The notes beneath the pieces are model-generated. The model was not told the origin of the DNA, ran no database searches, and saw only the letters and a program-made list of their open reading frames with translations. From positions 32,674,001-32,738,000 of the forward strand of contig NC_086380.1 of NCBI RefSeq assembly GCF_036588685.1: a stretch of 64,000 nucleotides of DNA, given 5' to 3'. Below, piece after piece: positions 332 through 38,160 of this stretch; position 1 is the stretch's first letter, and the number at the start of each line of letters is the position of its first letter. This DNA is from Mytilus trossulus (taxonomy: Eukaryota). The translations under genes were made by a program, and so were the position numbers.

Positions 332-3300
332 AACACAGAATGGAAAACTTTGAGTTTTGTTTATGATGGTAAATTCCTTACAGGAAGTATAAATGGTATG
401 ACATCAAGAGTCCCACTTAGAGGTATGTGCATTATATAATACTGTAAACCAACTAATGTTTGGAACTTTAGCGAGTAGAAAAATAAGGTGGATATAAATA
501 GTTGAAAATGTTTTCTCTTTTCGACTACATAAGGTGAATGTGAAAAAAACAAATTAAAAGCGTCTCGTAAATAAAAAGAAGCGTTTATTCTCAACAAAGT
601 TTTTTTTATTTAAACCATAGATTTTTAACATCTGTATACAAGAATGAAAAAAAAAAGTCATTTAAAATTTTTATAAAAACAAGTTCAGAGTAATAATATT
701 AAAAGAGCACACTATTGTCTCATATTTTCATGACTTTTAAACTGGATGCAATGCGACGTTTAGATGAATAATTCAAACAACCGACAGAACGTTATTTGAA
801 TATCTTTCAAAATATCAGAAACGAATGTACTCTAATATATAAGCTATATTATAATATATATTTTTATGCATGGTAACTAATTAGTATATTAGATTAATGA
901 AGATGTCAACATTGTCAGGAGACACCTACCGCACATTATGCAAAACGATGGTGACCTTATCGTTTGTTAAAAAAAAACAAGCAATAAACTAATAAAATAG
1001 CCTTTAAATTTCATTTTAAAAAAGAGTATTGAGTATTTTGCAAGGTCAATTTAAATTACCGGTCAGTGACTCCGTAAAAAAAGCTATTGGTGTCTTGTAA
1101 AATTCGAATACAATATAATATTCTATGGACCCGTTTAAAGACATATATTTATTACAGGTGTAATCGAAGAAAGACCAAGTGCGCTGATACTAGGAGCATG
1201 TGATTATTTTGGTGGATTTGATGGTTTAATGGATGATGTAAGTTGAAAAAAACCAGTAGTAAACGAAGAAAACGTTTTTCAGGGAATGACGTAATAAATA
1301 TTCCCTAAAAGATTCGAAATATACACATTTGCAAGCTGCGTTTTACACCGTTTTACAAGAAAATTATCTGTGCTGAAATGAAAATTTTGTAAAAATTGAA
1401 TGGCCTTAAAACTGTCTGTCAGGAAAAAAAACATTTCACAATCATCATTCTTAAAAAAACATTTAGGTTCAACAGGCGACAGTAGTAGACCGATGAGCAA
1501 ATCCCGTCAAGAGAGTAGTAAGAGATAATTCCAAGGTAACGAACAAAAACTGAAGGAATCGTTTGCCCTTGTAAAAAAGCAATACCAATCGTCAACAGGG
1601 CAAGTGCCTCCTGATATGCAAGCTGCATCAGCCATGCAAACTTATAAGTACAAAACACAGTGTTAGTTTTTATTGTAATCATTGGTAGATAAGCTCTTTC
1701 GTTCAGATGACATGTTTTCATAAAATGAGGCAGTTATTAATATGGAAATAAAATAATTGCTTGTTGATTTACGCAAAGCACCAGTTATCACATGAATAAT
1801 AAGGACAAAGAACAAGACGAAAAGAATGGTTTTAATGAAATGCAATTAAATACATTCGATCAATAGACATGTTCAATTTTGAACAAATGAATATAAACGT
1901 TTTGGTACTGTACCATAATTCCGTTGCATTAACCAAAATTCCCACCAACAGTTTTTGTTAATATCATAAGATGCATTTTTAGAAATCCACCAAAATATAA
2001 AAAAAAATTATTCAAAATGGTGCGTTCGACTCTTTTCTGGATTTACCTTCATCATAAACACTCAACTCCGTAAAAATGGAAAGCCAATGATCTATTTATA
2101 CTTTAATACTAGAGAAGCTTATTGTCGAAACAAGACCTTAAAGGAAAGCCAAATCCGAAATAGCATGAGGAACCTCGGGGCATCCTTACACTACAACATA
2201 TAATAAGGCATTATTATTCACTAACATAACTATGGTTCTTTGTGTGTCCTAAATGATAGCAAATATATTGTCTCTTTAATAAGAAAAAAAGTGTTTTCGA
2301 TAATATTTATTGAATTTACACTTTATGATACATAAAAATAACTCAAAGACTTAAATGTGTACGCCAAACGCGCTATGTGATTACAAAAACCTCCTCAATA
2401 TCGCTCGAATCACGCAAGTTGACATGCCAATAAATAGGCAGTACGAAATAAATGATTGACAATTAGGGCTTGCAAATAATTGGGTCAACTAAGAACACAT
2501 GATAATTTATGACGAATTTATATTCTTAGAATTCGATTATACACACATGATTAAAATATACACATTGAACAGGCTTGAGAATCAATAAAACAGTCTCATA
2601 TTGTCAAGCTGTAGATATCGGCAACACTTCTGTCACCTACATAACCTAATAAGATAGCAAATCAATAAAATTTACATAAATTATAAAGAAGAAGACAGGA
2701 TTGAATGCTGAAAAAAACACCAGGTGAATTCCCGTCACAGGTTCATGTACCTATTCAAATTCATATTTTTCTTTATTGTAAAAGCATGACACATGCACAA
2801 AATATATTTTTTTGGTAAGCATTATTTCATTTTTTCGCTGACATAAGGGCAAATTATTATCTCGGGCGGAGAGTTCATATTAATTTTTGTACATGCATCC
2901 TAAACACGTTTTGTAATCCTCGGTTTTTAATGCTCGTCAACTACTTTTATATTCGAGTGTCACTGTATATTTATATTTAGCCGTAACGTACCAAATAAGA
3001 AGCCTTGTATAAATTAAAGGCAAGAAATGGTATCAACATTTTTCTATTCAGCTTGTTTTCATTATCCATAACAACCATCGCTTCACATTTACGAAATGTC
3101 ATATTTATGAAAATTCAAAAACTTCTTACAAGATTTCTTAAACACCAAATCTACTATTTGTATCATTGCTTTGATTCTTTTTTCTTTTATCTCATCATCT
3201 ATACTGCAATTATTTATAGATAAATATTAATGTATGTGATCTGTATATCCATAGAACGAAACGGATTGAAACTCTAGGCACAAATACTATTGTTCTTGCA

Positions 3301-3512
3301 AAACATGTCGAGTTTTCCTATTGCACTTATTTCTGCGTACATTCTGATTTCTGTAGCGAAATGACGACACAAAATCTTGATGATTTATAAGACTGGCTAT
3401 TTTGTTAGTATTTTCAGATTGTGTATCGGTTCACTCATATATTTGATATTAATAAAATGCTTTATCTTTTCAGGTTAAGTTGTATCTGTGTGTACCGCAT
3501 GGAATAACGTAG
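332..3512 (+). CDS. 3' part (last three exons) of a Pif/LamG3-like laminin-G domain protein; join(332..422,1158..1237,3474..3512); gene starts upstream of the window
   Basis: AG|exon|GT sites in consistent phase give NTEWKTLSFVYDGKFLTGSINGMTSRVPLR-G-VIEERPSALILGACDYFGGFDGLMDD-VKLYLCVPHGIT*. This aligns exon-for-exon (same 91-nt exon, same phases) with the last three exons of the minus-strand gene at 12602-14059. Missed by the ORF track. Confidence 0.85.
2021..2063 (-). ncRNA. Degenerate hammerhead-like motif, third family (relatives at ~32320-32364 +, ~30726-30750 +, ~16727-16741 +)
   Basis: GTGTTT-ATGATGA-AGGtaaatCCA-GAAA-AGAG-TC-GAACGC; the other copies share tgatgaaggt and/or the upstream tatttggctttgagcgttc flank. 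Confidence 0.45.
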
Positions 3513-5601
3513 TACAATGTCTACTCTATCTAGCAAATGACAATCTGTGATATTTATAAATAAGTTGACTTTCGTTGGTTGCTTTTTAAAAATCCCTTAC
3601 ACAGAAGAACCCGAAAGCGCTTTCAGTATTCACTCGAAGGACTTTGTATTAGTTGTATAAACATACACATATATATATATGATTTTTAAGCCAGCTGACG
3701 CCTCCCCCAGGTGCGGGATTTTCTCGCTGTGGTGAAGACCCATTCGGGGCATTGGGCTGATTTCTAATCACTGATCATGCTGTTGTCTCTTTGACATATT
3801 TTGAATTCTCTATTATAGCACCAACTGCATGTACATTTGTTGATATGTACGCCCATTTTGATCAAATGCAATTGATCATTATTTTTTTTCGTAAGCTGAG
3901 GTTTTGCTGTTTATAACCATAACACGGCAAACCTATTGTGTATGTGTGTTGTGAGAAAGAATTAATTTCATACATACACGAAGACGGAAGTAACTTTTCG
4001 AATTTATTTGATTTTTTTGGTGCTTTCAAATTAATATTGACTATTGTGCCCTGGGTTTTATTCAACCATATTTTATATGACAGCAGCAAAATCTATTTTT
4101 GCACGTTGCCATGGGCTCTACTCGGACTGAAAAGGGAAAAATTAATTTGACAGAAAGCAATATTTTTATTTCGAATGTTTTCGTGAGACTTTAGAAGTCG
4201 AGACGCGCCTTTCTACATTTTCAATTTGTTTCATCGAGAATGTGTATCCGAATGATATTAATGAATAAAATTCAGATTGTTACTCCCTCACCAATGTCTA
4301 AATGAAATATGCTGTATTTATTTTGGATATACAAAATTGAGATCATAATAAAAAGATACAATGTGTTCACATTATGTACGATATTCATGCAAATATAATT
4401 AAACATCATATTGTTTTATTTTTCTTATCAGCAATGGCTTTATGCCGCCAAATTACATGCATGCGCATTTCACCGTCTCAAACTCCATACTACTGTTTGT
4501 TATATCATAATTCGTATTCAAAATAAAAAAATGATATCACGTCATTGGTTGAATTTTCAAAGTTTAGAATCCTTTTAACCAATTACAATTGTTTGGCGTA
4601 ATAGTTTTTGAAGTATTTCCAATGCATTTAAATCCTCATGAATTGATGGGATTGAACTTTTATCGTTGCCATGGTCATAATTCAAATAAAACATGCATTA
4701 ACAATAGATTGTGTCCACTGAAATTATTGATTAATGAACTTATCCGAATTCGGTGATTTGAAGTTTTAAGAGTTATACAAATTTTTTAGGCTTATTAGCT
4801 TTGAGAGATTATTATATGTCATTTAATATTGGAAAAAATCGTGCCCCAATTTTAGAAGAAAAAAAATATCGGCGTGTATGATTTTAAACAGTTTTTTTGG
4901 GTATGTAAGCCAAACGAACCAACAAAAATCTACGCAGAAATATATACAAATATTACGACCATAAACAACTTAACACGATACGACACCAATTGGATAAGCA
5001 GTGTCGAATGAGACTTCGGTGGCAATAGTTGTCATCAGATATTCAAGTTTGATTTATCCAATAAAAAAGACGCATAACATTTATCTTCAAAACAACTGTT
5101 TGTTAATCTTTAGTGACTATAGCTAGCGGATGGATAGTGTCTAAAACAATAAACTTAATAATTCTTCCAGTTTACATTCAGTTTCTTTCTAGAAGATGCA
5201 CTAACAGTGGTGGGACAGCAACTATCAAATAAAAAATTCAAAAAAAATGTCAGACTTTTCTTTTTTTTCTATATAATATATTATATCGAGGTTTCAGTTT
5301 TCAAGCAGCTTAACGACTTGAATTGGTATGATGAAATTGAATTGAACTTTTAAGCGAAAACAATTTGAACTTGATTTACCGTATTCTGTCTTACATAGGT
5401 TGATTTTCTCCTTTAAATTTATATTGCAAAGCAGCTGTGCGGGTTACAGATTAAAACATAAATTCGAGCATCTTAATAATATATCAGCTCTAATGAACAA
5501 AACACAAATGTCCTGACAATAGAAATTCAACCAATGACTTAGGGATACTATTTTTGTTTACCTCAAATTGGTAATTAAAGATACCAGGCTTATAATGTTA
5601 T

Positions 5602-5645
5602 ACGTCAGACGCGCGTTTCGTCTACATAAAACTCATCATTGACGC
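5602..5645 (-). ncRNA. Hammerhead ribozyme copy with a core mutation (CUGAUGA to AUGAUGA)
   Basis: Same family and flank as 50463-50506; all stems retained. Confidence 0.7.
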
Positions 5646-7504
5646 TCAGATATTATACCTGATGAGTTGATTTCGTATATTCATTGTGTGATTGTGAACA
5701 CTCTCATCGTGTAAATTACTGGTAATATCTAAACATGAATGTTTGTAAACTTCCTCTGTTGTTGTCTCAATAAAATGATTGCCACTTTTGTTTTTCTTGC
5801 TCAGCTTTTACAGGTGGGATGATATTAGTCGAAATAAAGATTAAGAAAAGACCTGTTATAAAATCATGTAGGCACTACTTTACTTCGACTAATGTTCTAA
5901 ATCAATTTTCAACGATTTTATTTTGTATCCATTTGTTGTCTATTGGTCTTTTTCACTTTTTTTGTCGTTGCGTTATCAAATCATTTTAAGTTTGAATGTT
6001 CCTTTGGTATCATTTCTCTCTCTTTGAAGAAGGAATAAAATGACACAGCATTCATTGGACAAATACCAATTAAAAGTTATTTGGAAGTCAATTACATGAT
6101 ATATTTTGGACCTATAGCGATTTGATTTTAACATATTGTGAATGAAATGGAGATTCGTCCCATTGGCACTCTTACCACATCATCATATTTCATTTGATCA
6201 ATATCAGTATTGTAAATAAACGAAAGTTAGGCTAGAGATAAACATTGCAGAATGGAAGGTCGGTATCAAGATATCAATATTTTGATGACATTTTAATGAA
6301 TATGAAAGTAAGAGCGTATATAGACATCATAAAAGGATTGTTATCTGATACTTTCCCAAACATATATGAATTGTGCCGTGACAAAAATAGAATAAAAAAA
6401 GCAAAAATACGCGACCAAAAGAAAAACCACAGTCCAAAACAATAACCTTAAAAAATCTGAAATGGGCAATGTAAACAATAACAAAAGAGTAGGGGGATAT
6501 CATGTCATCTGGAAGGGTACGAAGGGCCTACCCAACATGCAAGACCTGTCATGTTGCTAAAGCAAAAACAAAATAACTTTAAACTTCGTTTAGGAAGGCC
6601 ACAATCGAGGAAAAACAGGTCCCAGTTCTTTTACTTTATTACCGTAAGCAAATACAGCTCTTTCAAATTACACAATATAAAAATCAAATAGACAATGTAC
6701 AGCATAATATAACATTTATACATTAGTTATACAAACCAAAGGAAGAATAAAGGAGAGTATCATATAGAGACATATTTAACTACCAAAACATTTGGATAAA
6801 TAACTATACGTGCGCTTTCAGATTTTTTATATATCTACATCTTATCTCGTTATTTTCAATTATAATCATATAATTATGTGGATTGCTTATCGACAAATGT
6901 GTTTTGATTGTTTTTCTGGTGACATCTGCTTTCATTTGTAAGCGATTTACAAGGAGATGAAATAAGACTAGACATATCAGTGTACTTGTTATTTTTATAC
7001 ATATCTATTTATATATTATACGAACAAATTGTATTCCGTGATGGCATGAATTATTACTGATGAGGTAATTACGTGGTTGTTAAATTTGATATATGTTTTT
7101 TGTGCTTCTTTGTTAAATATTTGTTTGTTTTTGTTCTGATTGAGATTGTGACATAATGGTGACTGTTGTACCCCTATTTTGACAATGTTACCTATACTGG
7201 CTGTGTTTTGTTCATGCATCGTTGTAAATATAATGGAATTTGATTTACGACTAGTGCTTTAAAACCAGATTCATTCAACCACATTCTACGAGAAATATGA
7301 CAGTTGTTGTCCATTCGTGAGATGTGTTGTATCATTTGATTTCGCTATTTGATTAGGGACATTCCATTTTGAATATTCCTGATCATTCCTTGAAGATCAG
7401 TAATTTTGTGATTTTTATTTTTTCATTAATTTTCTGCTCAGTACATATGCAAATCATGACATAAAAGACGACTTTCGTTTTTCTTTTGTTGACGAAACAC
7501 GAGT

Positions 7505-7925
7505 CTGATAGTTGAAAGTTTGATAGTTTATTAGAGAAAACTCAGCCGCAGAAGACTGCGGAACAGGATCATATTTATATACACAATATTAATTACAACA
7601 TAGTTCATAATACAAACAGAAGACATTTTTAAATTACACATCTTCAGAAATAAGTTTGTGTTTATTACAGTTTTAAATTAGACAAGCAGCTTTTTTACCT
7701 TTTGAATAAAAATTGACAGCTTAGACAGCACATTACTATTACTATATTTAAGCATGCCAAGTATTTTTTTTCATTTGGATATTTTAGACAATATGGAGGT
7801 ATGAACTTCCTTCTTAAATACTTAACTTCACAGTTGGTACATTTACATGTATAGTGGTATACATCTCCAAGACCAGCTTTACAGAGTGGACAAATCCTCT
7901 CATTTCGTGGTACATTTCTCCATCG
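7505..7925 (-). mobile_element. 5'-truncated LINE 3' end (ORF2 C-terminal CxxC..H..C zinc-finger region, RTE-X-like)
   Basis: Reverse frame RWRNVPRNERICPLCKAGLGDVYHYTCKC...RRKFIPPYCLKYPN, followed by a ccgcag/ctgcgg hairpin, AATAAA and an aactatca-type tail. Confidence 0.7.
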
Positions 7926-8886
7926 GATATGTATTTCACATTAGTGATACAAATTTATAAATTGATAAAACAACTGAAAAAATATAAATAAACTAACCCT
8001 CTCTATCTCTCTCTCCACAAATCAATACCACCATTTATTATCAATGATCCATCCCTGGATCCTACTATCCTCCGTCCACGTCTTTTTAGTTCAAAATAGT
8101 ACCATACCCAAGTCAATAACAAACATTTGATTAAAAGGTGATGAAAAATACTAACTACAACAATTAAGGGTCAGGAAAGTTAAGTGTACAAGTCATAATT
8201 CTTTATACAGTTATACCGTTTTGTTAGAACACTAATACAGATAGATTAATCATGTATTGTACGACCAACTTGATTTTCCTTATATTAATTTCGAATTTCA
8301 AAATGTTGATAGATAATATAACAAAAATATCGAACTCTGAGGAAAATTCAAAACGGAAATCACTTATCAAATGACAAATATCCAAACTCTAACACATCAA
8401 ACGAATGAAAACGAACAGCAAGTGGATTTAAGTATTGTAGCAGATTTAGAAGTTAACCGATGTTTATGTCTATATAAAAACTGAGGGAATTGTACGAACG
8501 TCAAATAGAGACACACCTGGTACATAGATGTGACATGCCAAGTCGAAAAAAATAAAACATTTCCACAGAATCACTGCGTTATAAACTTTTGTATGTTTGC
8601 GTGTCCCATTGTATCAATATTAGAGCTATTGTTCTCTGTGGATTTTTTTCAATGGGAGTTTTATTTTTCCCAATGAAAAAACTATCATTCATCCATTTAT
8701 TTATCTGAAAACGATGATTAACTTCCAGTTAGGAAAATGCACGTACCAATACTAGATAGGGACACACTACTGCGTTTGATAATGTCTATGCTTCAACGTC
8801 AAACTTATTTCTACTTTAATTGTTGTAATTTGTTGTTTAGTGTTTAACTATGTAGCAACATTTAAGTAGCGTCCGCATACGGAGTA

Positions 8887-9052
8887 CTGTGGATTCATTA
8901 TTATTCGTTGGATACCAATGTTCGTGGATTTCGTGGGAACAGTTGAACCACGAAATAAAATGTTCAACAAATGATAAATTTTCTCATGGCTTGTATGCAG
9001 ACTTTGGCAAAACCACGAAATCAAATATCCACGAAAATAAATGAATCCACAG
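8887..9052. mobile_element. MITE with TA flanks (Tc1/mariner-type)
   Basis: TA|ctgtggattcatt...aatgaatccacag|TA; partial second copy at ~57600-57712. Confidence 0.8.
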
Positions 9053-9149
9053 TATATATCTTTCAATTGATGCGATATTCTCGGGCTTGTATTTTCTTTC
9101 ATGATTTCCTTGAAAGAGGTTTACTGCTCACACGATGCTATTAAACCCA

Positions 9150-11460: not shown

Positions 11461-12601
11461 AAGTTTTGAAGGAAGTATGTAATGTTATTATCACGTGATG
11501 ACAAATGGAGAACTTTTATGAATTATCTATATGAAAATTGTCATAGGTAAAGTCTATGTAATAATTCCTCCAATTTTTTACACGAATTACAAAGCTCATA
11601 TAGCACAATACAGTGTCAATTAATAAGCATTTATTCAATAAAGGCAACAGCAGTATACCGCTGTTCGAAAATAATAAATCGAGTGGAGGAAAGATATCCA
11701 GGTTACAAACTAATACCGAGGGAAACACTTCAACGATTAGAGGAAAACAACGAAACTTCACAAACACTAAAGTGCAACAAATAAAATCCCTACTTAATAT
11801 TTCATTTTCACCATATCATTCTGTGACTGATATATTCATACAGTTAAAAAAAAGTGACATGTATATAAGGAAAACATAAAATGACAATTTCTATAAATAA
11901 GATTCATCAGACGGAATGTTCTGACCGTGCTATTTGTGTGACAGCTAGGTAAGATGGGCCAGTAAATTAAGTTATTTTGTAGACTTTTCAACACTGATTA
12001 ACATTATATCGTGAGTTTTTAACGTATACAAGTGGAATTTTAATTCAAAAACCACAAGTCTACATTAATTAAACAATAAAAAACATGTAAAATTCAAAAT
12101 AGGCATGTAATACTGTTTTATTTGCATAAAAATGATAAAAAATGAGAAATGAAGTAACAACAATATATTATAAAATAACAATATAAAAAAAATTGCTTGT
12201 TCACGATATAATGTGCGGTCTTTCGGATATATGTAGTATACCGGGTAAAATGTTTGATGGGCATACACCAAACAGAGTTTCCGTGGACATATATAGTGAT
12301 GTGATTAATATAAAATATCGAAAGGTGCATATATGATAATACGATAATCTACCTGCAGACTATTACTACTCGCGAAAATGCAAAACTTAATTCTGAATGG
12401 GACATTTTTTTCTCAGAAATAAGTGGTTGTTAAAATCTCTTAAATTCAGAAAACAAGAAAATCCAAATTCACTCGTTCTTGTCATATGAAATTCAATCAA
12501 ATGTCATTCTACGTAAAACTGCTCAACTGTTGGTCCTAAGACTGTTATTCTATCACATAAATTAACAAAGAACCAGCTCCGTTAAAAATGTTTTAAGGAT
12601 T

Positions 12602-15600
12602 TCACCGTTGTTTACGAGGTTTGTAAATATGTCTTGGAATACAACCACTAAATACTTCAATCTGGAAAATAGAATTAATACAAATGTCATTCAATATGTT
12701 TATTGCAAACATATGTAAAATTGTGTGAAACAAGGTTATTAATTTACATAAAAACAAATGCATCTCATCAACATAGGTATAAAATCATTCTGTCACGCAA
12801 ATTGTACATGTATATCAGTACAAAAACATGCTTATGGAGATATGTCTCGTTGGCAATCATACCAAATTTTCTTTTTTATATTATTTAATATGACCGACAA
12901 GTCAATGTCTGTTTATAGCGTGCTAGTTCATACGACGATTTTATTCTGACTTCGAGCAGTCTAGTTTTTTTTCTCACTCCATATTGTCACGTGCTTAGTG
13001 GCCAATTGAGTAAGCTAGGAAAGCCTGATTCTTAACAGATGCTCACAAAATTTATAAGCACTTGTCCTCCCAAATGTCTCCCCTAAATAAAACCTTCATC
13101 ATGACGATCATTTAAATTGCTTGCGTTTAAAATAATCGCAGACATAATAAAGGTCTCAAATGAAAATATGTACTGGAATATGAATTTAATATCTATTCTT
13201 ATAACGCATTTAATTCAACTGGAACTTTACCAGGATTCTTCGAATCAAAGATATTTTATCGTGGAGAATAGATTAAGTACGTTTTAGAGAACTTGGCCTT
13301 AAACAATTCGTTCAAAACTTGTAAAATCAACAACACAATGTCTCTTTGATTGTGATTCTGTAAATTCAATCAACACACAGCTCCAGTCAAATCATATGTG
13401 TTTTCAAGTAAAGTAAGAACAGATTCTGCTGGTATAGAGATAAAATTGAAAATAACATTTAACTTACACTATCTATTAAACCTGTGTATCCTGAACCAGG
13501 TTTAGGACAACCACCTATTACAATAGCATTTGATCTTGTTTCTAGCATACCTGAAAATTAAGAATGATATCTAAAAACGTCTTGTTCCTTACACAAATAA
13601 ACAATTTCATAAGTCATGTTTATTAAATTAATTTGAAACTATTTATAAACCGAGGACACAACACCCAGTTAGTCATTAATAGAAACCATTTACAGTTCCA
13701 TCTGTGATATGATCAGGTGCATATTACATTCCGAAGTCGTCAATATATCAATGATTGATCCTGTAATGTTTTGTTACCCTTTCTCCAAGTTGCACATTTT
13801 CAAATGACTCTTTTCTATGTATATCACAAAAAGTTATGTCATTTTCATTTTGGCTTTCAGATATTCTTAGCTAAAATTTCATAACAATAAGAGTTATACC
13901 CATTCACAATTGGATTGTCATTTGAAGACATCTCAACACTCAGACGAATTAAAACTGAATCAACTTACCTCCCAACGGCTTTCTAGATCTATAACCATCT
14001 ATTGACGCAACGAAACTGTTACCATCATACACATATGTTAAGTCATTCCAAGAGTATGGCTATAAAAATAAATAATTATTGCATTACAACTGTTACCATC
14101 ATACACATAATTATGTTATGTCATTCAAAGAGTATGGCTTTAAAATAAATACATATAAGTGTTTTAGCTTTAAACTGAAGACAGAAGGACACAGTCCCAA
14201 AAAAAAGGGCATCAATATATAAAATGTGATAAAAAATTGATGTTAACAGATTTAAACGTTTATATTAAACAAATGTACAAATGTAATTGATTAAATGTGT
14301 TCAAGATATGACCGTTTATGCAATTGGAATAATAACATAAAAGTGATTAAACTAGAAACATATAAACAAAGCTATTGGCCTTTTCATCTAAGTACATAAT
14401 GTCCTAAATATTCGTCTAGCAAAGTATAGCAATGCTCTTTTCTAATATAAATTGCAAAAAATTCAACCGATTTCATGCACACAAAAAAGGAAAAAAAAAG
14501 GTAAAAAAAATATCCCCAAAAACCAGATATTGGTATGGTAACGATTAGTTGCACACAACACGGGTACGTCATTATACATTTAAGTGTTACTTACATCGAA
14601 ATGACTTGTGATAAATGTTCTTCTACTAAAACTGTTACTTTTGGCTACTAATTTCACTTTATGATTTTCTAATCCTATTGCAACTGTTGCAGTTCCCGTC
14701 ATGCCACAGTTCGAAATCAAATTTCCCTTTTCTGTTGCTTTTGGATCCGGTTTGAATCGTAATCGAATGGCCAATTTCGTTCCAAGTTCTTTATTCATAA
14801 ATCCCCACAGAGTTATGCGCCCATTTCCATTGAATTGTGCAGCTCCATCATTGATAACAACATTGTGTACATCGAACGCCATATTGGAACCTGACAACTC
14901 CTTGAATCCGTAGTTGAAATTCATATAGAAATCTGGCTGACATTCTGAATAAGAAACTAAAGTTTGAAAATCACTGACGTTTTTTGTTACCAATATTTTC
15001 CGGTTTGAAACGAAAACATCGAGCATAGAAATCGTGCACAACTGATTACGTCACAATATATTGATAAATAATTTCTAAAATCAAGGTCAACAGGAATTGA
15101 GGTATTATAAATGAATCCAATATTTCCCCGTTTTCAATTGCATAAATTGATACATGCTTCCCAACATCGAGTTAAGTCGAGCATTACATTGTCATGAATA
15201 CCACGTGCAGTCATAGTTTTTGTATTCTAAACGGAAATAAAATATTGAATAGTAGTGCCAAACTTTGATATCAGCCAATCAAAACTAAGGTTTACAATGA
15301 AATATATATCTAATATAATTATACACGTATGGAAGAGGGACGAAAGATACCGAAAGAGACAGTCAAACTCATAGATTTTTTCCTCCATAATAAAAATTCT
15401 CAAAAATACAATGTTACTGATAGATTAGTCTTATTACTTTGCACGCATATTTTACTCCATACTGACTCTACACTTGAAATTAGCATTCCCTATGTTGATT
15501 CAATTTTTGTATTTAGAAAGCAGAACAACCATTTTTAAATTATCATCAAATTGTAGATGGGAAACGATGTGCTCCAATTCTGTATTTCTTCATTTTAAGG

Positions 15601-18600
15601 ACATGCCCTTTATTTCTTATATTTATATTTAGCACCTCATTATTCCGTATTATTTCTTTTTTTATTACTTTCCTTAATTGTTATTTTGTTTTTTTGCCTT
15701 TTTATTTTGATTATTACTCTCTATTCTGCGAACCCCCTTTAAACCCTCCAAAATTTAACAGTTATTTTAATGATGCTCACCTCTCATTCTACGTCTACCA
15801 CTACGCATCGGTCCTGATCCTCTTCTACATCCACACTGTCTTGCACTGAATACAGTTCCTTCTGGACAAGCTCGAATTCTTAATCCATTATATTCCAAAG
15901 TTAGATAACCGTGTGGATTGTATTCATCAGGTAAGAATTTACATGCTATAAGAAGAAAATGCCTTATTTCAGTCACAAAAACATAGCAATTTAATAAATA
16001 TGTCAAACCATTTATTGTATGCTACAGTTTTCCCAAATATTGACCCATGTTCTCAAACCTGATTGATAAAATAGGCATAGACACTTCATCAAAAACACTT
16101 GGAAGTTATTTCGAAAACATATATAGAGATTGTAATAATACTAAGATGGACGTCATCCTTGAAATAGTAGTACCAGTTTTATGCACATTTCGACAATTAG
16201 TGTCTCTTCGGTTATGCTTGAGTACAAAAATGCATAGCACATTATTTTTTTGAGAAAAGGGTGAGATAACTGAATTGAATGGAACAGCTTCATTTTGTTC
16301 TATTGAAAATTAATAAAATCTTACCTTGAAATCGCATTCTATTTTCAATATCATAAGGGGTCAAACAGTTGTCCCGGCATGTTGGGTCCGGTACACACCC
16401 ATAGTTGTTATAACGGTAGCCTTTCTCGCAACACATAGGAACAGATATTCCGTAGTCACAACGATAGTAAGAACGACATCCACCTGTTCTGTTGTATTGT
16501 ACCATATCTATATCCAAACATGGATCTGAAAGTCAAACAAAAAATATTACATTCTAAGACATAACAAATTTTAAATCAACTTATACAGAAAATAAAATCT
16601 ACCGGGGTATACACTGTATGCACTGTTATGTTACATTATATTATATTTAACCCCTCCATAGCATTTTTATAGCTCAATAAGTGTTTCGGTACTTATACAT
16701 CCTCAGCTTTCAAATATGTGGCTCTAATCGTTCTTGATGAATGCATATATATTTTTGTATTTGTAATTGTAATCATAGCAACAAGTTACTTGTAAAATAA
16801 TATTTACCATCATAACAAGGAACCTCTGCAGGTGGTCGACAAAGTACTTGGTCCTGATGCCAGAAATATCCGTAGGGACATTCTCTTTGCACCGCAACAA
16901 CTTTTCCATCGGAATGGAAACATTGAACTAATTTATCGCAATACCCAGGATACTCAGCATAACCAATTCCGTCAATAAACATACTATTGCCACACAATGC
17001 TACAAGAAAATATTGTTGTGAAGATAACTTTTTTAAGATGTTTATGTTGACCTCAAATACAGCTCATTTTTAAATCATTTATGGTCTCACTGAAATCTTT
17101 TGAAATAATGAAAAGTGTTTTGAGATGATCAACTTTTGTGATAAAATCTTATTTTGTTTATAGCAGTATTTTTATATCTGTGATTTTTCGATATTTCTTA
17201 TTTTTCATATGTTAAATGTTGTAGCATATACATTGAATGTGTTATAATATCGTTTTTAAAATGGTCATGCGTTTATGACGGGTAGATTTCTTATTTTGAC
17301 ATTAGTTACGAATTGATTTTGTTTTGATATTTGGTGTTCAAGCTATTTACCGTCCAAACTTATTTGAATTCGAATGGTTTTTTTTGGTTAAAAGAGAAGC
17401 TTGTTTGTTGTCTCATTGATTTGTACTCCAAATATACGTGTATATGACCTTTGATAAGGATGGTTCGATTGTTGTTGTATTATATCGTCCGAGATTGTAT
17501 ACATTCAAAATACTGACACATGATAAAACTACTTACTTTCTAAAGCTGGAGAACTGAATTCTGGTTCATATTCTCCCACTAGATTATGTTTTCTGTCTTG
17601 TTGTGTATTTTCAGCCCCTCTGGACATGTCAAATTTATTGCTCATCTGCTGTTGTCTTTGATGAATCTGCATACTTCTGTCATATAAATCCCTTGAGAGT
17701 TCGTTCGTTGTTTCCATTGTCCTCGTTGCTACTCTTGATGTTTTTTCAGGTTTTAACCCGGTCACTCTGACGTCGGTTGTTTCAAGTCTTCGCTTCAGTT
17801 GAGGTTTTTCGGGTCCTGTATCAGTGACGTATGTTTCTGGTAATGCAGTTTTTTGTGTTTCTTCAATTGTTGGTTTGTCACGTGGTTCAAGTGTTTGTTT
17901 TTCGGTCTGTTTTATTTCTGTAACAACTACTTCCGGATCTTTAATTGTCATTTGTTGTTCGGTTGCTTTACCTTGCATATTGTTTTTTACAAGTAAATCG
18001 GGGTTTTCGATTGTTGTATAGACAGGTTCAATACTTGCTTTCTCAGTTCCTTCAGTTTGTAGTACTGTGTTGATTTGTATTGGTTCAGTAGCCGTTGAAT
18101 CAACAACTTCCTGTTTCTGCTCAACTAATCTACTTGCTGGTGCTATTTTAGCTGATTCGGTGTTAATATTTTGTTCATCAATTACTGGTACAGATTGTGA
18201 TTCACTACCAATGAATGGTGATACTGTAGTGTTTATATCAGGTACAGTAGTGTCTGCTATTTTAGCCGATTCAGTATTTGTATTTTGTTCATCAATTATT
18301 GGTACTGATGGTGATTCACTACCAATGAATGGTGATACGGTAGTTTTTATATCAGATACAGTAGTGTCTGCTATTTTAGCTGATTCGGTGTTTATATTTT
18401 GTTCATCAATTATTGGTACAGATGGTGATTCACTACCAATGAATGGTGATACGGTAGTGTTTATATCAGGTACAGTAGTGTCTACTATTTTAGCTGATTC
18501 GGTGTTTATATTTTGTTCATCAATTACTGGTACAGATGGTGATTCACTACCAATTAATGGTGATACGGTAGTTTTTATATCAGGTACAGTAGTGTCTGCT

Positions 18601-21600
18601 ATTTTTTCTGATTCAGTATTTATATTTTGTTCATCAATTACTGGTACTGATGGTGATTCACTACCAATGAATGGTGATACGGTAATTTTAATAACAGGTA
18701 CAGTCGTGTCTGCTATTTTAGTTGATTCAGTATTTATATTTTGTTCATCAATTATTGGTACTGATGGTGATTCACTACCAATGAATGGTGATACGGTAGT
18801 TTTTATTTCAGGTAAGATAGTGTCTGTTATATTAGTTGATTCAGTTTTTATATTTTGTTCATCCAAAGTTAACGATTCACTAGCAATAGATGGTGATAAG
18901 GTAGTCGTTATCATAGGTTTAGTAGCGTCTGTATGTTTTGATGTTTCGAGTGGCAGGTCATACTTTTCTGTATTTGTAATACCTTTTATCTCATACTGTG
19001 GAGTTTCATCAATCTTCTTAACTGTTGTTGTCTCATCAGCTGCTGGTATGATATCTACTTTATCTGGTGTGGCGGAAAACACTAAATCGACATTAACTGT
19101 TTCTGGAGACAACTCTTTAATAACGACCCCATCGACATCTTTAGATATCACGGTATGATCAATTGATGGAGATCCTTCCACTAGAGGTTTGTTGTTAGAT
19201 AGTAACTGTTCGTCGCCTATTTTAAAGCTGGTTGACTGCTCAGACATTGTCTGTTGACCTTCAGTTTCCATTGGGATTGTCGATTCAAGATTTGTAGTTT
19301 GGGTGAAGGATTTTTCCGAAATGTCCTTTTCCGCTGTGACCGGTATAATGCCGTCAGTTAATGTAGAAGTTTCTGACACCGTATCAGTTGCTTTATATTG
19401 TACCACAGGTACCTCTTTGATTAATACAGATGTGTCTGGCTGATCCAAACCTGTTTCAGTAGCAGTTTCGGATTGACTGGGCATATATACAACCACTCCC
19501 TCTTTACCTACGAGTTGATCTGAAGTCTGAACAGATTTTGTTTGATGACTTTTAGGTTGGCTTGACTTGTCTGTGAATGCCTCCTCAGTAACTTGCGAGA
19601 CAGCAAGGGTATTTTGTAGATTTTCTTTAGTACCTCCAAGCAGATCAGATTGTTGTGAATCTACAGTTTTAGATTCAAGAGATTGACCCAAATTACTTAC
19701 AGATGAAGTATCCGATTTATCCAAGGAATTTGTATGTATAACGCCAGAAGCTGCTACCTGTTCGCTTTTGAGTAAGTTGTCTTCATATAAGGTCGCTGGA
19801 ATAACAATAGCCTCAACATTTTGAGACTTTGTAATTGTACCTTCAGGTACTGTTGCATCCAATGTTTGTGCCTGATCGATTGAAATAGACTTGCTATCCA
19901 CAACTGCTTCAGGTTTTGTTGCCACAATGCTATCCAAAACTGTTTCGGTGTTTGTTGCTGCATTGCTATCAAAAACTGCATCAGCGTTTGTTGCAGCTTT
20001 GCTATCCACAACTGCTTCAGGTTTTGTTGCCACAATGCTATCCAAAACTGTTTCGGTGTTTGTTGCTGCATTGCTATCAAAAACTGCATCAGCGTTTGTT
20101 GCAGCTTTGCTATCCACAACTGCTTCAGGTTTTGTTGCCACAATGCTATCCAAAACTGTTTCGTTGTTTGTTGCTGCATTGCTATCAAAAACTGCATCAG
20201 CGTTTGTTGCAGTTTTGCTATCTACAACTGCTTCAGTCTTTTCTGCAACATTGCTATCCAAAATTGTTTCGGTGTTTGTTACTGGATTGATAACCAAAAC
20301 TGCTTCAGTCTTTGTTGCTGTATTGCCATCCACAACTGATTCAGTGTTTGTTGTTGCCTTGCTATCTAAACCTGCATCAGTAGTTGCTGTCTTGCCCACT
20401 AAAACTTCTCCAGTGTGTGTTAGTGCCATGCTATCAAAAACTGCTTCAGCGTTTGTGGCTGCATTGCTATCCAAAAGTGCTTCAGTGTTTGTGACTGCTG
20501 TGTTATCGACAACTGCTTCAGTATTTGGTATCGTCTTGCTTTCCAAACCTAATTCAGTTTTTGGTGCTGTCATGCTATCTAAAACTGCGCCGGTATTTGC
20601 TGTTGACATGCTATCTAATACTGCTCCAGTGTCTGTTGCTGTATAACTATCCAAAACTGCTTCATTGTTAACTGCTGTCTTGCCATCTAACACTGCTTTG
20701 TTATTTTCTGCTGCCGTGTTATTCAAAACTGCTTCGTTGTTTGCTGCTGCTGTATTATCCAGAATTGTTTCAGTGTTTACTGCTGTCTTACGATCTAAAA
20801 CTGCTTCATTGTTTACTGCTGTCTTACTATCTAAAACCGCTTCGTTATTTACTGCTGCCGTACTATCTAAAATTGATCCAGTGTTTGATGCTGTATTGCT
20901 ATCCAAAACAGTTTCAGTGTTTGGTGATGTCTTGCTATCTAAAACTTCAATGTTTGTTGCTGCATTGTTATTTAAAACTACTTCAGTGTTTGGTGATGTC
21001 TTGCTATCTAAAACTGTTTCCGTGTTTGTTCCTGCGTTTTTATCCAAAACTACTTCAGTGTTTGGTGATGTCTTGCTATCTAAAACTGTTTCCGTGTTTG
21101 TTCCTGCGTTTTTATCCAAAACTACTTCAGTGTTTGGTGATGTCTTGCTATCTAAAACTGTTTCCGTGTTTGTTGCTGCTTTTTTGTCCAAAACTACTTC
21201 AGTGTTTGGTGATGTCTTGCTATCTAAAACTGTTTCCGTGTTTGATCCTGCGTTTTTATCCAAAACTACTTCAGTGTTTGGTGATGTCTTGCTATCCAAA
21301 TCTTCTTCAGTGTTTGTTGCTGCTTTGTTATCTAATACTGCTTCTGTGTTTGTTGCTGCATTGGTATCAAATACTGCTTCAGTGTTTGTTACTACATTAC
21401 TATGAGGAATAGCTGTAGGTACATTCTCATTCAAACTGGCCCCTTCATTCACTGGTATGTGATCATTTAAAGAAGGGTTTTCCTCTATTGCTCCTTCTCT
21501 GGTAATACTTTGTACAGCATTTGCTGGCAAGTCTTCAAGTGGCATTGGAATAGATAATCCACCAGGCGCGATCGGAGCTCCTCCAACCGCCTTATCAGTT

Positions 21601-26220: not shown

Positions 26221-26331
26221 TTTATAATTTTTCTGATTTTATGGGTAGTTTTCGTTTGATAATTTATATATTGATTTGAATAATTAAACATAAAAAATAA
26301 TCTTAAAATTTTGTGAAAAAGGAATACTCAC

Positions 26332-26400
26332 CCAGTTTGATTTGCTTTACATCCACGAATGTGACCTGCTATCTGTATTGAGCCGTTGGAAAAGAAGACT
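26332..26400 (-). other. Candidate non-coding first exon of the Pif/LamG3-like gene
   Basis: Strong donor TGG|GTGAGT at 26331. The coding exon has an acceptor (TTGTAG at 23354-23359) 8 nt before the ATG, so an upstream exon is needed. The 5' boundary is a guess. Confidence 0.4.
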
Positions 26401-32400: not shown

Positions 32401-33751
32401 AAAAAAAATGTTTTAACTATACAAAAATATCCGAAGATATCTAAAACGGTTTACATATAATCATAAACAATAAAGAGGTGATTCTTACATGTATATTATG
32501 AGTATTTCAGATTTTCCAGAAACTGAAAAGGAAAGGTTATTCGAAACAATGAAAGTCATTTAACAAGAACAACAACGAAGGACGGTCGCCATCTTGTGTA
32601 ATCAACGTTTTTATTTCAGCAAAGTCGTTAAACTTTCTACAAGGTGGAAATCAATTTTGCAATAAATTCGTCTTTCATTTTCGACCTTTAGCTTCTAATC
32701 TTTGTAAAACAATACATGCTTTATTTTATTCAGACACAAATATGACCTATAATTGCTAATTTCCATGTTGTTTGGTCTCCTGTGTAGATTTGCCTAATTG
32801 GAAATCAAACCACATCTTCTTATTAATTTCACAAGAGGTCAATACATACAAATTATACAGAATAGACAGCAAAGGTTATCGTATAATAACACGTGATTTT
32901 CATGACAAAGAAATATACAATTTATTGATTACTTGTTTGTAAGGAGAAGAAATATCATAAGTAAATGTAAGTACCTATATGCGTAAATATCTTATATTTT
33001 AAAACAAATGATTAAGTTTTCTCAGCAAAGTGCATATTTTTAACAGTGTAGTAATACGAAAGTACACCAATCAATGTTCTGTCTTGAGAGATAATGTGGC
33101 TGTTGCCTTTTGTGTCAATTCTCTGTCATATGGTATTTATAAAAATGAGATCGAGAAAGGGTAAGATAAAGTTGTCAAGCATTGCGATCGGATCTTGAAA
33201 GATCTGGTATCGGATGGTGAGTGCAATTTTATACAATTCAATTGCAAAATCTGGGGAAATATCTGTTTTATTATTTAAAGTATGAAGAATTCAGAACAAA
33301 GAAACATGTCTGTCGAAATGGCTCTACTTTCTTCAAAATACTGTGCATTAAGAAAAAAAACAGTACTATTTTTTCTTGTGCAAAAACTCACATTTTACCA
33401 CAAATTGGATAACGATAATGACTTAAACGATGGCTTAATAAAGATAAGTACTTTCGTTCTAGTCCTTCAAAAGATAGAATTTTCTTTTAATTTGGAATTT
33501 GTCCTTTTAAATTATTTAAAACCAAATTTTTATCTAAAATTTTACATTGGGCATCAATATGAAATTTTATATTATGCCTTAACATATATTGCTGTTAAAA
33601 TTAAGATCAAATTGATAATTTGCTAATTTTTAAATAGAATTAATTAAGGTTTTTACCCCATTTCCCCCTAATTTTCACATGCTTAAAAATTTAACTCCCC
33701 AGATTCAATCATTTTCCTTTCAAATTTTAGCTCAAAATATATTTGCCAGTA

Positions 33752-34198
33752 GGTCCGAGAACACAATTAATTCGTAGTGCATTTCTTTTAGAACATAAAT
33801 GAAAATAAAAAAAATCCCACCTGCGCTTTCTCAAAGAAAATTTTACAGTGTGTTGTACTACTTTTGGGACCAATTATGTCAAATTTATAGAAAACTTCAT
33901 CGCCTCTAACTCAAAATATGGACAATTTTGTGTTTAGGGCGTCTTGAAATCTTTAGACAGCTTCCGAAGTGCTCATTTTCAACCTTTTTCAGCTGGACCA
34001 AATCACTACTTTCCTTTAAAATTCTGGACCCAAATTTTTTTACAGTGTAATTTCATCCCCCTACTTGCAATTTGAGGCATTGAACATGGAGAAATAAATT
34101 TGGAAGGGGTATAAAAATTAATGGCAAGTAACCCACTGTCAACACTAGGGACTATATTTGTGACGAAAATCAAGGGACGACAATGGTGGTCTCGGACC
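33752..34198. mobile_element. Non-autonomous DNA transposon with 4-bp TSD (AGTA)
   Basis: agta|ggtccgagaacac...gtggtctcggacc|agta. Confidence 0.75.
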
Positions 34199-37188
34199 AG
34201 TAGTTTGCAGGTACATTTGATTTTTTTATTTGAATGAAACAGGAACCTAGTTAGGGTGTGTCGTTGGCCGAAAATCAATGCTTTTGGTAGAAAAATAATT
34301 TAGAGAGGAAATGAGTCTTTGAAGCTAAGGTATACAGCCACATAAATATTTTAAATTATTTTTTAAGTTAAAAAATTGTAAGCTATTCAAGATGACGAAT
34401 TAGATCTTTTTTGAATTTCTAAATTTATGGATATGGATAATAAACCGAATATTGCTAATAACAAAAAAATATTGATTCCAAAATCCTCCCCAAAAACACA
34501 GACATATTCCACAAAAGACATATTTAATAAACATACGAAGAGGGATTTATTTTAAAAATTAAGACAACTACTTTTTATTTGATTGAGAAGTTTTGTTCAT
34601 AACATCTACATTTTGTACATACAAATACATGTAAATGTTTGTTTCTGAAACGTACTTTTCATTGTCAGTCAAAAGCTTACCCCGTTTTGACCCCATTTGT
34701 TATTACAGCAATGGAAGTCATGTGACTACCATATTTGGGCAGTTTTAGGGTTACTTTTTGTTCAACAAAATGAGTCCATTTCATAGAAAAGTCATATCAA
34801 ATGGAATCAAAGCATGATATACATTAAGTACAAGAAAACTGCGTATATACGTTTTAGAAGTTCTAACATAGATTTTTTTTTTGATTAAACGGCGTGCTGA
34901 AATATTATACGAAGCTTTCCCGACCTCTTCACATGTTGCGGCTATTTTTACCAATTAGGAAGTCGAAATTTCTTTCTTCACTCAAGAAAATATATGCTAT
35001 GTAATTTTTTTATTTTCCTCATTTTCCTCTTGGGTATGTTTTTCACACGCATTTTCCCGACTTTTTTCTTGTCCAATAGTGTGCTACCCTCCCAGTAGTC
35101 GCTGTGTCGGCATTGACCATGATTTTGTTATGTACTTTTTAATGAATTTTCAGCTGATAAAGTTGTAAAATATTTGTAAATTATATTCAAACGGGCTAAT
35201 TATTGTTACTTTTTTGTTTTTGATTCTAGTGTTTATTTTTTTCCCTTTTGAAACAATACTCACAATTGATCCCAACCGACCTACTGACCTAAGATGGTAA
35301 CTTGTCATGTAATTATTTTTAACATGACATACCTCTGACCATACGTAATGAAGGTATATCAATACATGCAAATCGAACTCGAAAAAAAAATACGTTATGT
35401 TTTGTTTTCATTGATTGCTAATGGTTCTATTTAACTATATCTAGGTCAAAATTTGAAAAAAAAGTCGACTAGTTCGCTTACGTAGGACTTCAGCATTGCG
35501 TCGTTTAAACACAATAATTGGATGCTCTTTCATATTTAATGTTTCGAAAATGAACTGATACATATATTTTGTTTTTGGACAAGGTCATGTTTTTCCATGA
35601 CTGTAAGTCGCGTCTTTATACAGCATCTATTGAATGTTGGATATGTACTGATTGATATTTTATACTTAGAAATATATTTTTTTTATTAGTTGTTATTGGT
35701 CTTGCGCTAGCTGTTAATAACTGCGAGTAATTTCAGATATGCATATAGTGTCTTTTTGTTGTTGTTGTTGATTTAGGGATGTATAAGTACCATGACACGT
35801 TCGGTCTTTGTTTTTGTAAATTGTTTTTCTGCTTTGTATCGATCCAATGAGTTGCGCCCTTTTTAACTGACTGATAGATGATCATAGTTATAGTTCGGTA
35901 CTATAATACCACCGTTGCAGGATTGGGGAGGGTTAGGCTCCTGCATATATGTTCCTGTACCAAGTCGTGTAATACAGTAGTCGTTTATGACTGTATATCA
36001 TATTTGTATTTCGTTCATTGTTTTTACATGAACAAGCCGTTAGTTTTCTCGTTTAAATTGTTTAACATTTACCATTTTGAGGCCTTTCATTACTGACTAT
36101 ACGGTATCATGATTTGTTTTTTATTATTGAAGGCCGTACGGGTGACCCATAGTTGTAAACTTCATTGTCATTTGGTCTGTCTAGTGGAGAGATTTCTTAT
36201 TGGCAATCATAACACATCTTCTTATTTTTTATATATACATATATAAAACATAACTATAAGTGAACTGTTGTAAAAATGAAAATAATTCACGAGGTGCATT
36301 TTTACTCAAAAACGATGAAAAAAAAAATAAACTGAGAAATTTAAAAAAAAGTTCAAACAAAATGTATGTTGCTAAACTCTTAATACTTTTAGTATAATAC
36401 AAAATATTGATAAAATTATAAGATTTTGTTTTCATATAATGTGCTTTGTTTCATTTAGAATATAGTGTGGCCATTGACTTACATTTTAAAATGCATTCCG
36501 TTATTCGCAGTATTCATATTTTTTTATCCTTCTTCCGGTCCAAAGATTACTTTCAATCTAGATTCCGTTTACTTGTTAATTCTAAAGCCAATTCTGTTTA
36601 TTCAATCAATCAGGGCCGATTCAAGGATCAAAATTAAGGGGTGTGTAATGGTCCGAAATCTTTTAAAATCAAGTCAAAAATGTGTTATGTGCGATCAAAA
36701 AGGCGTTCACCTTCTACGCGCCCCTGTGATCGCCATTGATACATTTTTATTTGGTACAAAAAGGTGAAATTGGAAGTAAAATGTTAAATCCCAACAAAAT
36801 TTGTTTTGAACATAATAGAAACTATATTAAGCGAATTGTTTAATCATCAAATTAAATCCAATTCTTGTAAAGACAATAGTTTTGACATTCTATGGTAATT
36901 CCGTTTAAATTTTAAAAGTCATTTACATATTACTGATGTCAATCGAGTCTTTTACTATCCTTTACAAACAATTCATGCAATAGAGGTCAACATTTAAAAC
37001 ACAACGACGTTTACTAAACATCATATGCCTTCATGCATAGCATAAAAGTAACGTTTAACTTTATAAAACATAAGTTTTAGCGGCAAGTTCCGTGAATTGT
37101 TCAGTTTCACAATACAAATTTGTTTATTTGATTCTCTAATAAATTAGACAGTTATTGCACGCACACTAAGAGACAGGGTAGCAGCACA

Positions 37189-38160
37189 CTACTGTAATTT
37201 TACAAATTTAGATAATGTACTTATAAGCTTTCCTAAGCTGGCACGAATGGAATTGAAAGTTGACATCATTTGATTCATAGAGTTACTAAATCTTGCCATA
37301 ATTCCTATTTTTTGTTGTTGTGTATAACTTGCTTGTTGTTCTTGGTTCTGCGGTTGTTGTGATTGTGGCTGTTGTTTAGATTGTGGTTGTCTTTGATTTG
37401 GTTGCTGATTACCATTCTGCATCTGCATTTGATATTGTCTATGCATTTGTTGTTGCATTTGTTGGTGACGCATTGCATTTTGTTGAAATTGTTGATCATG
37501 TGGTCCATTTCCATGGCCGCCATTTGGTACTTGACCTGGTGCTGATATGGCTGCTCCACTTCCGTGTCCCTGTTTCATTTTCTGCCAAGCAGCATTCATT
37601 TTTGTAGGAGCTTTCGTAGTGATAGGATGTTCTGGTGCTTCATATTCCACAGCAGGTGCTTTCGTTGTCGGTTGCTGTCCTGGCTGTTGGCCACCTGGAG
37701 CTCCAGGTTGTGGTGCTCCCATACCTCCCATCATTCCGTTACCCATCATACCCGGATACATTGGGTAATTACCTGCCATCATACCCTGTCCTCCCATCAT
37801 CCCTCCACCACCGCCCATCATTCCAGTACCGTGACCCATCATACCTTGACCTCCCATTCCGTGTCCTCCCATCATTGCGCCACCTCCCCCCATCATACTT
37901 TGCGGTATCGGTGGTGGTTGTGTATTGAATCCACCTCCCATAGCAGCGGCGAATTCTGGGGGAACTGGACCGAAACCTTGTCCTCCGAAACCCATCCCGC
38001 CTCCTCCTCCCATTCCACCCGCTTGTGGATTCCAGGTGCCTCCTGCTCCACCTTCAGCTGCACCAGCACCTCCTGCTCCACCTCCACCATTCCACATTCC
38101 TCCCATCTGCTGACATAAACATGTCGGTAACAACAAACTTGCTAATGTAAGCGCTAACAT
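37189..38160 (-). CDS. Secreted Gly/Met-rich, Gln-rich low-complexity protein, 323 aa (candidate shell/extracellular matrix protein)
   Basis: GC-rich ORF in AT-rich DNA; signal peptide MLALTLASLLLPTCLC; GGG/MMGG repeats, then P/T linker, Q-rich block and a possibly amphipathic C-terminus. Acceptor TAG at 38168-38170 just before the ATG; AATAAA at 37123-37128 after the stop. Confidence 0.85.
   Translation of the reverse strand: MLALTLASLLLPTCLCQQMGGMWNGGGGAGGAGAAEGGAGGTWNPQAGGMGGGGGMGFGGQGFGPVPPEFAAAMGGGFNTQPPPIPQSMMGGGGAMMGGHGMGGQGMMGHGTGMMGGGGGMMGGQGMMAGNYPMYPGMMGNGMMGGMGAPQPGAPGGQQPGQQPTTKAPAVEYEAPEHPITTKAPTKMNAAWQKMKQGHGSGAAISAPGQVPNGGHGNGPHDQQFQQNAMRHQQMQQQMHRQYQMQMQNGNQQPNQRQPQSKQQPQSQQPQNQEQQASYTQQQKIGIMARFSNSMNQMMSTFNSIRASLGKLISTLSKFVKLQ

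Follow-up and report, generated by a model that had tools for sequence, protein, structure and literature searches.

Three neighbouring genes in a 64,000-nucleotide stretch of the Mytilus trossulus genome (the window), designated here A, B and O, raise the question of whether they form a shell-matrix locus and, if so, how that locus was assembled. A first-pass annotation read them as a biomineralisation cluster that arose by inverted duplication. The layout it described was borne out: A (plus strand) and B (minus strand) are convergent, tail to tail, with 9,090 bp from stop to stop, and O, a second low-complexity gene of the secreted type, is on the same strand as B with its end 13.8 kb upstream of the B ATG. 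The A-B intergenic gap is packed with dispersed repeats. Contigs from four of four runs, all of them O-containing, guessed to be RNA and without tissue labels, include A, B and O. Literature searches found no description of A-B-O linkage, and the locus brings together known kinds of gene in a mixed, probably old and apparently unreported cluster.

Structures and families of the three genes

The last three exons of A are in the window, with the 5′ exons placed upstream:

332..422, plus strand: third-last exon of A, LamG part; 91 nt, AG/GT ends; spliced tail 66/69 aa identical to P0020
1158..1237, plus strand: second-last exon of A; 80 nt, AG/GT ends; aligned to P0020
3474..4370, plus strand: last exon of A; coding 3474-3512 (stop), 3′ UTR to about 4290-4370

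When spliced, these exons encode 69 aa with 96% identity to M. coruscus PifN (AKS48157.1, P0020). Pieces of X1, X4 and X5 contigs begin exactly at 3474, the 3′ UTR has AATAAA at 4264 and 4347, and the X1 bin depth of 1.2 at exon 1158..1237 is that expected for 80 nt of a depth-9.79 contig (1.17); the joints 422/1158 and 1237/3474 fall outside the 15 contig joints listed of a total of 192 and are supported only indirectly. AKS48157.1 has VWA (E=1.8e-29) and CBM_14 domains (Pfam) and contains the low-complexity string listed for McoPifN/Unigene1582, which PMC11291548 gives as a nacre protein of M. coruscus. By sequence comparison A is a PifN orthologue, predicted by orthology to bear a VWA domain. 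In the initial description of A and B as Pif/LamG3-type, assignment of A to LamG3, the class without VWA, needs correcting in view of the VWA in its orthologue. AKS48157.1, which represents the PifN subfamily, is close to A in the tail and combines its VWA with CB modules, an insert rich in Thr and a LamG region that is complete. No linkage between PifN and LamG3 genes appears in the available part of PMC11291548; here A is linked to the LamG3-type gene B. M. coruscus transcripts described as 'sushi-like', the name that AKS48157.1 also carries, go up upon shell damage or acidification (PMC10639161).

Gene B has the following features:

12110..12661, minus strand: last exon; stop 12602, 3′ UTR to about 12110, AATAAA 12122; contigs X1 record 4 and X4 record 9
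13468..13550, minus strand: LamG exon, 83 nt; by the contig offsets, the exons on either side are separated by exactly 83+91 nt
13969..14059, minus strand: LamG exon, 91 nt; contig evidence
14595..14944, minus strand: first exon of the LamG part, 350 nt; 97% to M. edulis P0001; both boundaries coincide with ends of contig pieces
15781..15945, minus strand: third chitin-binding-like module and basic linker; CBM_14 E=0.022, under the curated cut-off
16325..16525, minus strand: second chitin-binding-like module; CBM_14 E=0.0028, under the cut-off; contig piece
16808..16999, minus strand: first chitin-binding module (CBM_14/ChtBD2); CBM_14 E=8.4e-6, over the cut-off; contig piece
17537..23353, minus strand: stalk exon, 5,817 nt; ATG 23345; predicted signal peptide
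26332..26400, minus strand: candidate non-coding first exon, proposed from a splice-site motif (donor 26331), with a guessed upper bound

The B product is 2,316 aa long, consisting of a predicted signal peptide, a 1,936-aa stalk, three chitin-binding or chitin-binding-like modules and a LamG domain. The stalk is acidic, Thr/Ser/Val-rich, Cys-free and of low complexity, with 12-aa and 38-aa repeats. The splicing is confirmed by contigs that join exons in exact register and by a RefSeq orthologue, XP_071179976.1, that is 86% identical to the stalk exon over the aligned residues and 94% identical to the CB and LamG part. Pfam gave no family match on the 1,936-aa exon and no VWA on P0004 or P0002; it gave no LamG match on the single exons of B or on P0004, and relatives of B match Laminin_G_3. 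A structural model of the C-terminal domain, made from the orthologue P0005, is an all-beta sandwich (pLDDT 90.7) that aligns with solved ConA-like folds at a TM of about 0.6. In the fold search the top-ranked structures, with 10-19% sequence identity, were ConA-type lectin-like subdomains from complexes of clostridial neurotoxins; this fold is common and abundant in the PDB, and a toxin role for B is not suggested.

On the domain matches and the modelled fold, B is a LamG3-type protein: CBM_14/ChtBD2 is present, the C-terminal domain has a predicted ConA-like/LamG fold and VWA is absent. The LamG3 class, as defined in PMC10543319, has CB and LG without VWA, and B is like those proteins in its predicted signal peptide, its CB or CB-like modules (three), its uninterrupted LG fold and its lack of VWA. 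What sets B apart from them is the 1,936-aa stalk, which is acidic, rich in Thr/Ser and internally repeated. The CB and LG C-terminal module of B is also found in Pif (Pinctada) and BMSP (Mytilus), as is the shell-matrix role that is probable for B; those proteins differ in carrying VWA, in one or four copies, and a long insertion within LG, and B, with VWA absent and LG uninterrupted, was not accepted as Pif/BMSP proper. The oyster chalky-layer protein CNI_014385, set beside B by its label of LamG3 (Pif-like), is about 46 kDa as compared with the 2,316 aa of B.

Gene O is compact:

37110..38167, minus strand: coding exon; ATG 38160, stop 37189, 323 aa; AATAAA 37128
38922..38980, minus strand: candidate non-coding first exon, placed by a splice-site motif (donor 38921), with an upper bound that is a guess

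Because it has its own stop codon and poly(A) signal, O is a separate gene. That it might be the 5′ part of B is ruled out, as there is also no donor at its end and the RefSeq B model has the same ATG as B here. The protein is basic (pI 9.7) and rich in Gly (22%), Gln (15%) and Met (11%), and its N-terminus is hydrophobic on a hydropathy plot, predicting secretion. It had been called an orphan, which is not strictly so, since mytilid homologues exist; the C-terminal amphipathic segment is conserved. P0003 was the sole match in a database search with O, and the tail alone as query returned one candidate that was not a match. Pfam recognized no family in O, a metagenome scan for the O pattern gave 592 pattern matches with 0 confirmed, and the Atlas gave generic helix matches with no feature match. 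Prediction of the O tail as a homo-trimer scored 0.02.

Counterparts in nacre

The nacre proteome of Perna viridis (PMC6641155) lists 378 proteins from 69,859 unigenes, and its tables include counterparts of A (Unigene31135, 4 peptides), B (Unigene51584, 2 peptides) and O (Unigene542, 1 peptide in the acid-insoluble fraction, and so under that study's two-peptide list). On visual comparison over 45 residues of a CB1-CB2 stretch, Unigene51584 agrees with B at 42 and with the paralogue P0009 at 23, and 36 of the last 45 residues of O are matched by Unigene542. Among the matches listed, Unigene51584 was recovered from the two nacre fractions and is missing from both myostracum tables, and Unigene542 is in acid-insoluble nacre only. 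These two unigenes, described as 'mucin-like with ChtBD2' and Gly/Met/Gln/Ala-rich, are clear counterparts of B and O, but are partial transcripts that have neither a gene structure nor a map position; the M. trossulus locus shows the genes at full length and side by side. With a published nacre PifN as the orthologue of A and counterparts of all three genes in Perna nacre, the original biomineralisation reading gains support. Six short motifs each had no match in the supplements of M. galloprovincialis and multi-species shell proteomes, files that may not list sequences. Adjoining shell-matrix genes also occur in Pinctada fucata (PMC4759782), although those clusters are same-family tandem duplicates, whereas here two deeply split tail-to-tail paralogues are accompanied by one non-homologous gene.

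Age and assembly of the cluster

The tails of A and B are related, with 40% identity across 67 aa and an alignment score of 141 against a shuffle mean of 23 (none of 5,000 shuffles scored as high), and the last three exons have the same phases, 0/1/0. The 'identical 91-nt exon' initially noted is identical in length but not in sequence, with 46 of 91 bases matching, and is followed by exons of 80 and 83 nt. Over the core, identity between A and B is 34%. The trees place A beside Sinanodonta ACJMK2_011229 (61% identity) and B beside ACJMK2_011231 (50%), and the AU test rejects a clade of A+B (p=3.5e-49); both are quick trees with SH-aLRT only, one using 41 of 158 rows and the other 19 hand-picked rows. 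Nearer to B is a paralogue group that has among its members M. trossulus LOC134695713 and Sinanodonta ACJMK2_030672; the Sinanodonta member is not on the record that carries ACJMK2_011229 and ACJMK2_011231. By this phylogeny, A and B are not sister duplicates. The A-like Sinanodonta model, ACJMK2_011229, has no VWA match. As its locus tag is only two from that of ACJMK2_011231, with one tag between and records of the same size (130,511,731 bp), A-B linkage is likely ancient, and likely older than the Mytilida-Unionida split, roughly 480 million years ago. This comparison covers A and B, by locus tags, in one Sinanodonta genome. The adjacent oyster pair CNI_027462/027463 was not accepted as orthologous to A and B, as the architectures differ.

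Inverted duplication as a Mytilus-level event is not supported, with A and B in separate clades that each have a unionid orthologue and B nearer to a paralogue elsewhere; a very old local duplication may still lie behind the pair. The first-pass reading in full, in which a lineage-level inverted duplication of a single Pif/LamG3 gene yielded one co-regulated locus, would fit the convergent orientation, the common exon phases, the 91-nt length and the occurrence of all three genes in the same four runs, but we regard it as very improbable given the lower identity of A to B than of either to its unionid orthologue, the rejected clade, the nearer paralogues of B and architectures as unlike as VWA and giant stalk. 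We give equally little credence to A and B being an ancient block held together by active constraint, through shared enhancers in the 9-kb gap or a common chromatin domain, with O added by mytilids. Apparent linkage in two lineages separated for so long and the presence of all three counterparts in one shell layer would be expected from such a block, but the gap is filled with dispersed repeats, and in bivalves the order of genes can be retained even where regulation does not constrain it.

An explanation that accepts only A as truly a nacre protein, treats B as a general mucin tethered to chitin in mantle or other epithelia and O as a neighbour by chance, and attributes the shell peptides of B and O to carry-over seems unlikely, though it draws on several observations. 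B is mucin-like in make-up and its Perna counterpart has low mantle expression (FPKM 3.75, as compared with 394 for a BMSP unigene), the O counterpart has a single peptide, and many Pif and LamG3 genes lack high mantle expression, as reported in PMC10543319. Carry-over is possible because the Perna list also includes cytoplasmic proteins, among them tubulins, eIF4A and a Na/K-ATPase (PMC6641155). Against this are the nacre listings of the B and O counterparts noted above and the hydrophobic N-termini of both proteins; in addition, three neighbours are unlikely to fall by chance among 378 of 69,859 unigenes, although such lists are enriched in secreted and chitin-binding proteins. Also doubtful is a more specific proposal, in which PifN and LamG3 make up a co-regulated nacre module whose linkage predates the Mytilida-Unionida split. 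The pair would possibly be a relic of a local duplication that split a LamG3 lineage without VWA from a Pif ancestor with VWA, and the Gly/Met/Gln framework gene would have been added later by mytilids.

The explanation we favour, and consider probable, is a small nacre-matrix locus in which an old convergent pair, PifN and a giant LamG3-type gene, lies beside an unrelated mytilid Gly/Met/Gln-rich gene; the mantle is predicted to secrete all three products into the chitinous framework of the shell. The three gene structures, the gene families and the published Perna nacre peptides for the counterparts are the parts of this reading that are directly documented. In such a framework, A would use its chitin-binding modules and VWA to connect chitin sheets with other proteins of the matrix. 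B would be attached to chitin at its C-terminal head, from which a very long acidic stalk, probably disordered and O-glycosylated, would extend and could hold water and calcium within the gel between sheets, and O, a basic protein with a counterpart in the acid-insoluble fraction, may join the insoluble framework through a flexible Gly/Met/Gln body and its conserved amphipathic tail. The promoters of A, B and O are separate and distant, and any co-expression would therefore not come from a common promoter; it might reflect mantle programmes in common or one chromatin domain.

Shell-matrix proteins are mostly known as proteome fragments. This locus supplies full gene structures for two of them, B and O, and physically links both to a named nacre protein, PifN. 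With its conserved tail, O is a compact candidate for a framework protein and is directly testable. If A-B linkage is truly old, it would provide a synteny marker for the number of nacre origins and for the descent of LamG3 from Pif-like ancestors, and should the pair prove to be a co-regulated ancient module, the pattern in which bivalves have kept it, lost it or broken it up would constitute a genomic test of a single origin of bivalve nacre.

Gene models and transcript support

The gene trio of this AT-rich window, which homology assigns to a Mytilus species, is real. Gene B (-) is spliced from eight coding exons, with canonical AG/GT ends, into a single 2,316-aa reading frame, and gene O is a separate gene ending 13.8 kb upstream of the gene B ATG. 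The tails of genes A and B agree in exon phase (0/1/0), and each includes an exon of 91 nt; the first-pass annotation described the gene layout accurately.

332-422, 1158-1237, 3474-3512 (+): the three exons of gene A in the window
38160 (ATG) to 37189 (stop) (-): gene O, 323 aa

The two 91-nt exons match at 46/91 bases, and the tails align far beyond chance (0/5000 shuffles as good). In the intron immediately before the gene B 91-nt exon (~14150-14076, -), the exon's acceptor and initial ~45 nt recur as an incomplete tandem duplicate with a 4-nt insertion, a possible decoy splice site.

The gene B model is reproduced by M. edulis RefSeq XP_071179976.1 (358/381 columns in CB+LamG; 86% identity in the stalk), and its exons are joined in contigs of two sequencing runs (X1 record 4 and X4 record 9), in which the offsets correspond to the exons not listed between (174 = 83+91; 165; 558 = 192+201+165). 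The M. edulis GenBank model P0001 (CAG2189235.1), unlike XP_071179976.1, omits the 91-nt exon and most of the stalk, likely an annotation error. For gene A, whose joints are absent from the 15 contig joints listed out of 192, contig pieces begin exactly at 3474 in 3/4 runs, in records that extend 665-1,122 letters further; X1 depth in the bin with the 80-nt exon is 1.2 versus 1.17 expected from that exon alone, and one database protein spans all three exons with 66/69 residues identical. The runs, guessed to be RNA and without tissue labels, were selected as containing gene O, and pieces of genes A and B are present in 4/4, which shows shared sample presence, not the co-regulation that had been proposed. 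Nor does the layout imply co-regulation, as genes A and B are convergent, without a common promoter, with 3′ ends ~7.8 kb apart across a repeat-rich gap.

The window has a second inverted paralogue pair, head-to-head UNC-93-like transporter genes with PF05978 on both main exons, and a further open frame with no Pfam match under E 0.05. By eye, we take the latter to resemble a LINE ORF1-type protein.

46564-49491 (-) and 55543-60831 (+): UNC-93-like transporter genes
41177-42148 (+): 323-aa open frame

Identity and history of genes A and B

The best match of gene A is P0020 (M. coruscus AKS48157.1), a protein of VWA-CB-LG architecture that is named 'sushi-like protein', yet for which the Pfam search found VWA and CBM_14 but no Sushi domain. 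Because P0020 has these two domains and includes the low-complexity string given for McoPifN in the available supplement of PMC11291548, gene A is, by orthology, PifN and not LamG3. In the available text of that paper, PifN is the name given to nacre proteins from four bivalves, and PfuPifN is placed in the mantle pallium and in the mantle folds too. Gene B has one CBM_14 over the cut-off and two under, and VWA was not found in the domain search; its C-terminal domain, modelled in an orthologue as a beta sandwich (pLDDT 90.7), matches ConA-like folds in a structure search. Gene B fits the LamG3 definition in the available part of PMC10543319, so that of the 'two Pif/LamG3-type paralogues' first annotated, gene B stands as LamG3-type and gene A moves to PifN.

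The gene B stalk (1,936 aa; Thr 14%, Ser 10%, Asp+Glu 15%, pI 4.3) is Cys-free and is encoded in part by tandem arrays; repeat content varies between Mytilus orthologues, with lengths of 2,247-2,330 aa.

18141-18863 and 19891-21403: gene B stalk coding arrays of 114-bp and 36-bp units

A dibasic site close to the stalk end (~residue 1851) is present in M. edulis too, and an Arg-rich linker from CB3 to LamG (~residues 2117-2121) in Perna too. Pif and BMSP are reportedly cleaved proteins and, by analogy, these basic motifs are possible candidate processing sites.

An inverted duplication, the origin first suggested for the pair, is rejected as a recent event. Core identity is 34% between A and B, versus 61% for A with Sinanodonta P0022, 50% for B with Sinanodonta P0002, 63% for B with Pinctada P0013 and 46% for B with its paralogue P0009. 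In quick trees, A and B fall into distinct clades (SH-aLRT 99; 98-100), each beside its unionid counterpart, and a clade uniting the Mytilus A and B genes is rejected. The Sinanodonta orthologues, ACJMK2_011229 and ACJMK2_011231, are assigned to records equal in length, and the two other labelled Sinanodonta members are 273 tags off or on another record. With more than 30,000 tags, two given genes would be so close by chance ~1 in 10,000 times, and the A-B linkage is therefore likely inherited, as judged from locus tags in one outside genome with one tag in between. Given the separate clades and the probably old linkage, the exon pattern common to A and B is most readily explained as a long-standing feature of the family rather than a trace of recent inverted duplication.

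Shell evidence and a proposed role

A shell-matrix role for this locus, also proposed initially, is likely, with counterparts of all three genes in Perna viridis nacre in the available tables of PMC6641155: Unigene31135 for A (4 peptides), Unigene51584 for B (2 acid-insoluble, 1 acid-soluble) and Unigene542 for O (1, acid-insoluble), the last falling short of the authors' two-peptide list. By-eye counts match Unigene51584 to gene B at 42/45 residues versus 23/45 to P0009, and Unigene542 to the gene O tail at 36/45. Counting against a shell role, the single gene O peptide is below that list, the same Perna nacre list includes cytoplasmic proteins, and mantle FPKM of the gene B counterpart is 3.75; in the available part of PMC10543319, many Pif/LamG3 family members are not high in mantle. 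Motif searches of the accessible proteome supplements of PMC4517812 and PMC5854119 gave no match. On balance, the full shell-matrix reading of the locus seems reasonably probable.

Gene O has one database homologue, P0003, with the middle motif and tail conserved; the final 36 residues of O form an amphipathic segment patterned in heptads, with a moment exceeding 98% of shuffles. Shell genes of one family are known to sit in tandem clusters (PMC4759782). Searches of non-subscription literature found no description of a locus like this one, in which PifN stands beside a giant LamG3 and an unrelated low-complexity gene and the A-B linkage is probably old.

By likeness to Pif97, whose VWA domain pulls down nacre proteins (PMC11291548, available text), the gene A product may cross-link chitin with matrix proteins. 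The gene B product would form a chitin-anchored, acidic, mucin-like brush within the interlamellar gel, a role similar to that raised for mucin-like shell proteins in the available text of PMC6641155, and the gene O product may contribute to the insoluble framework.
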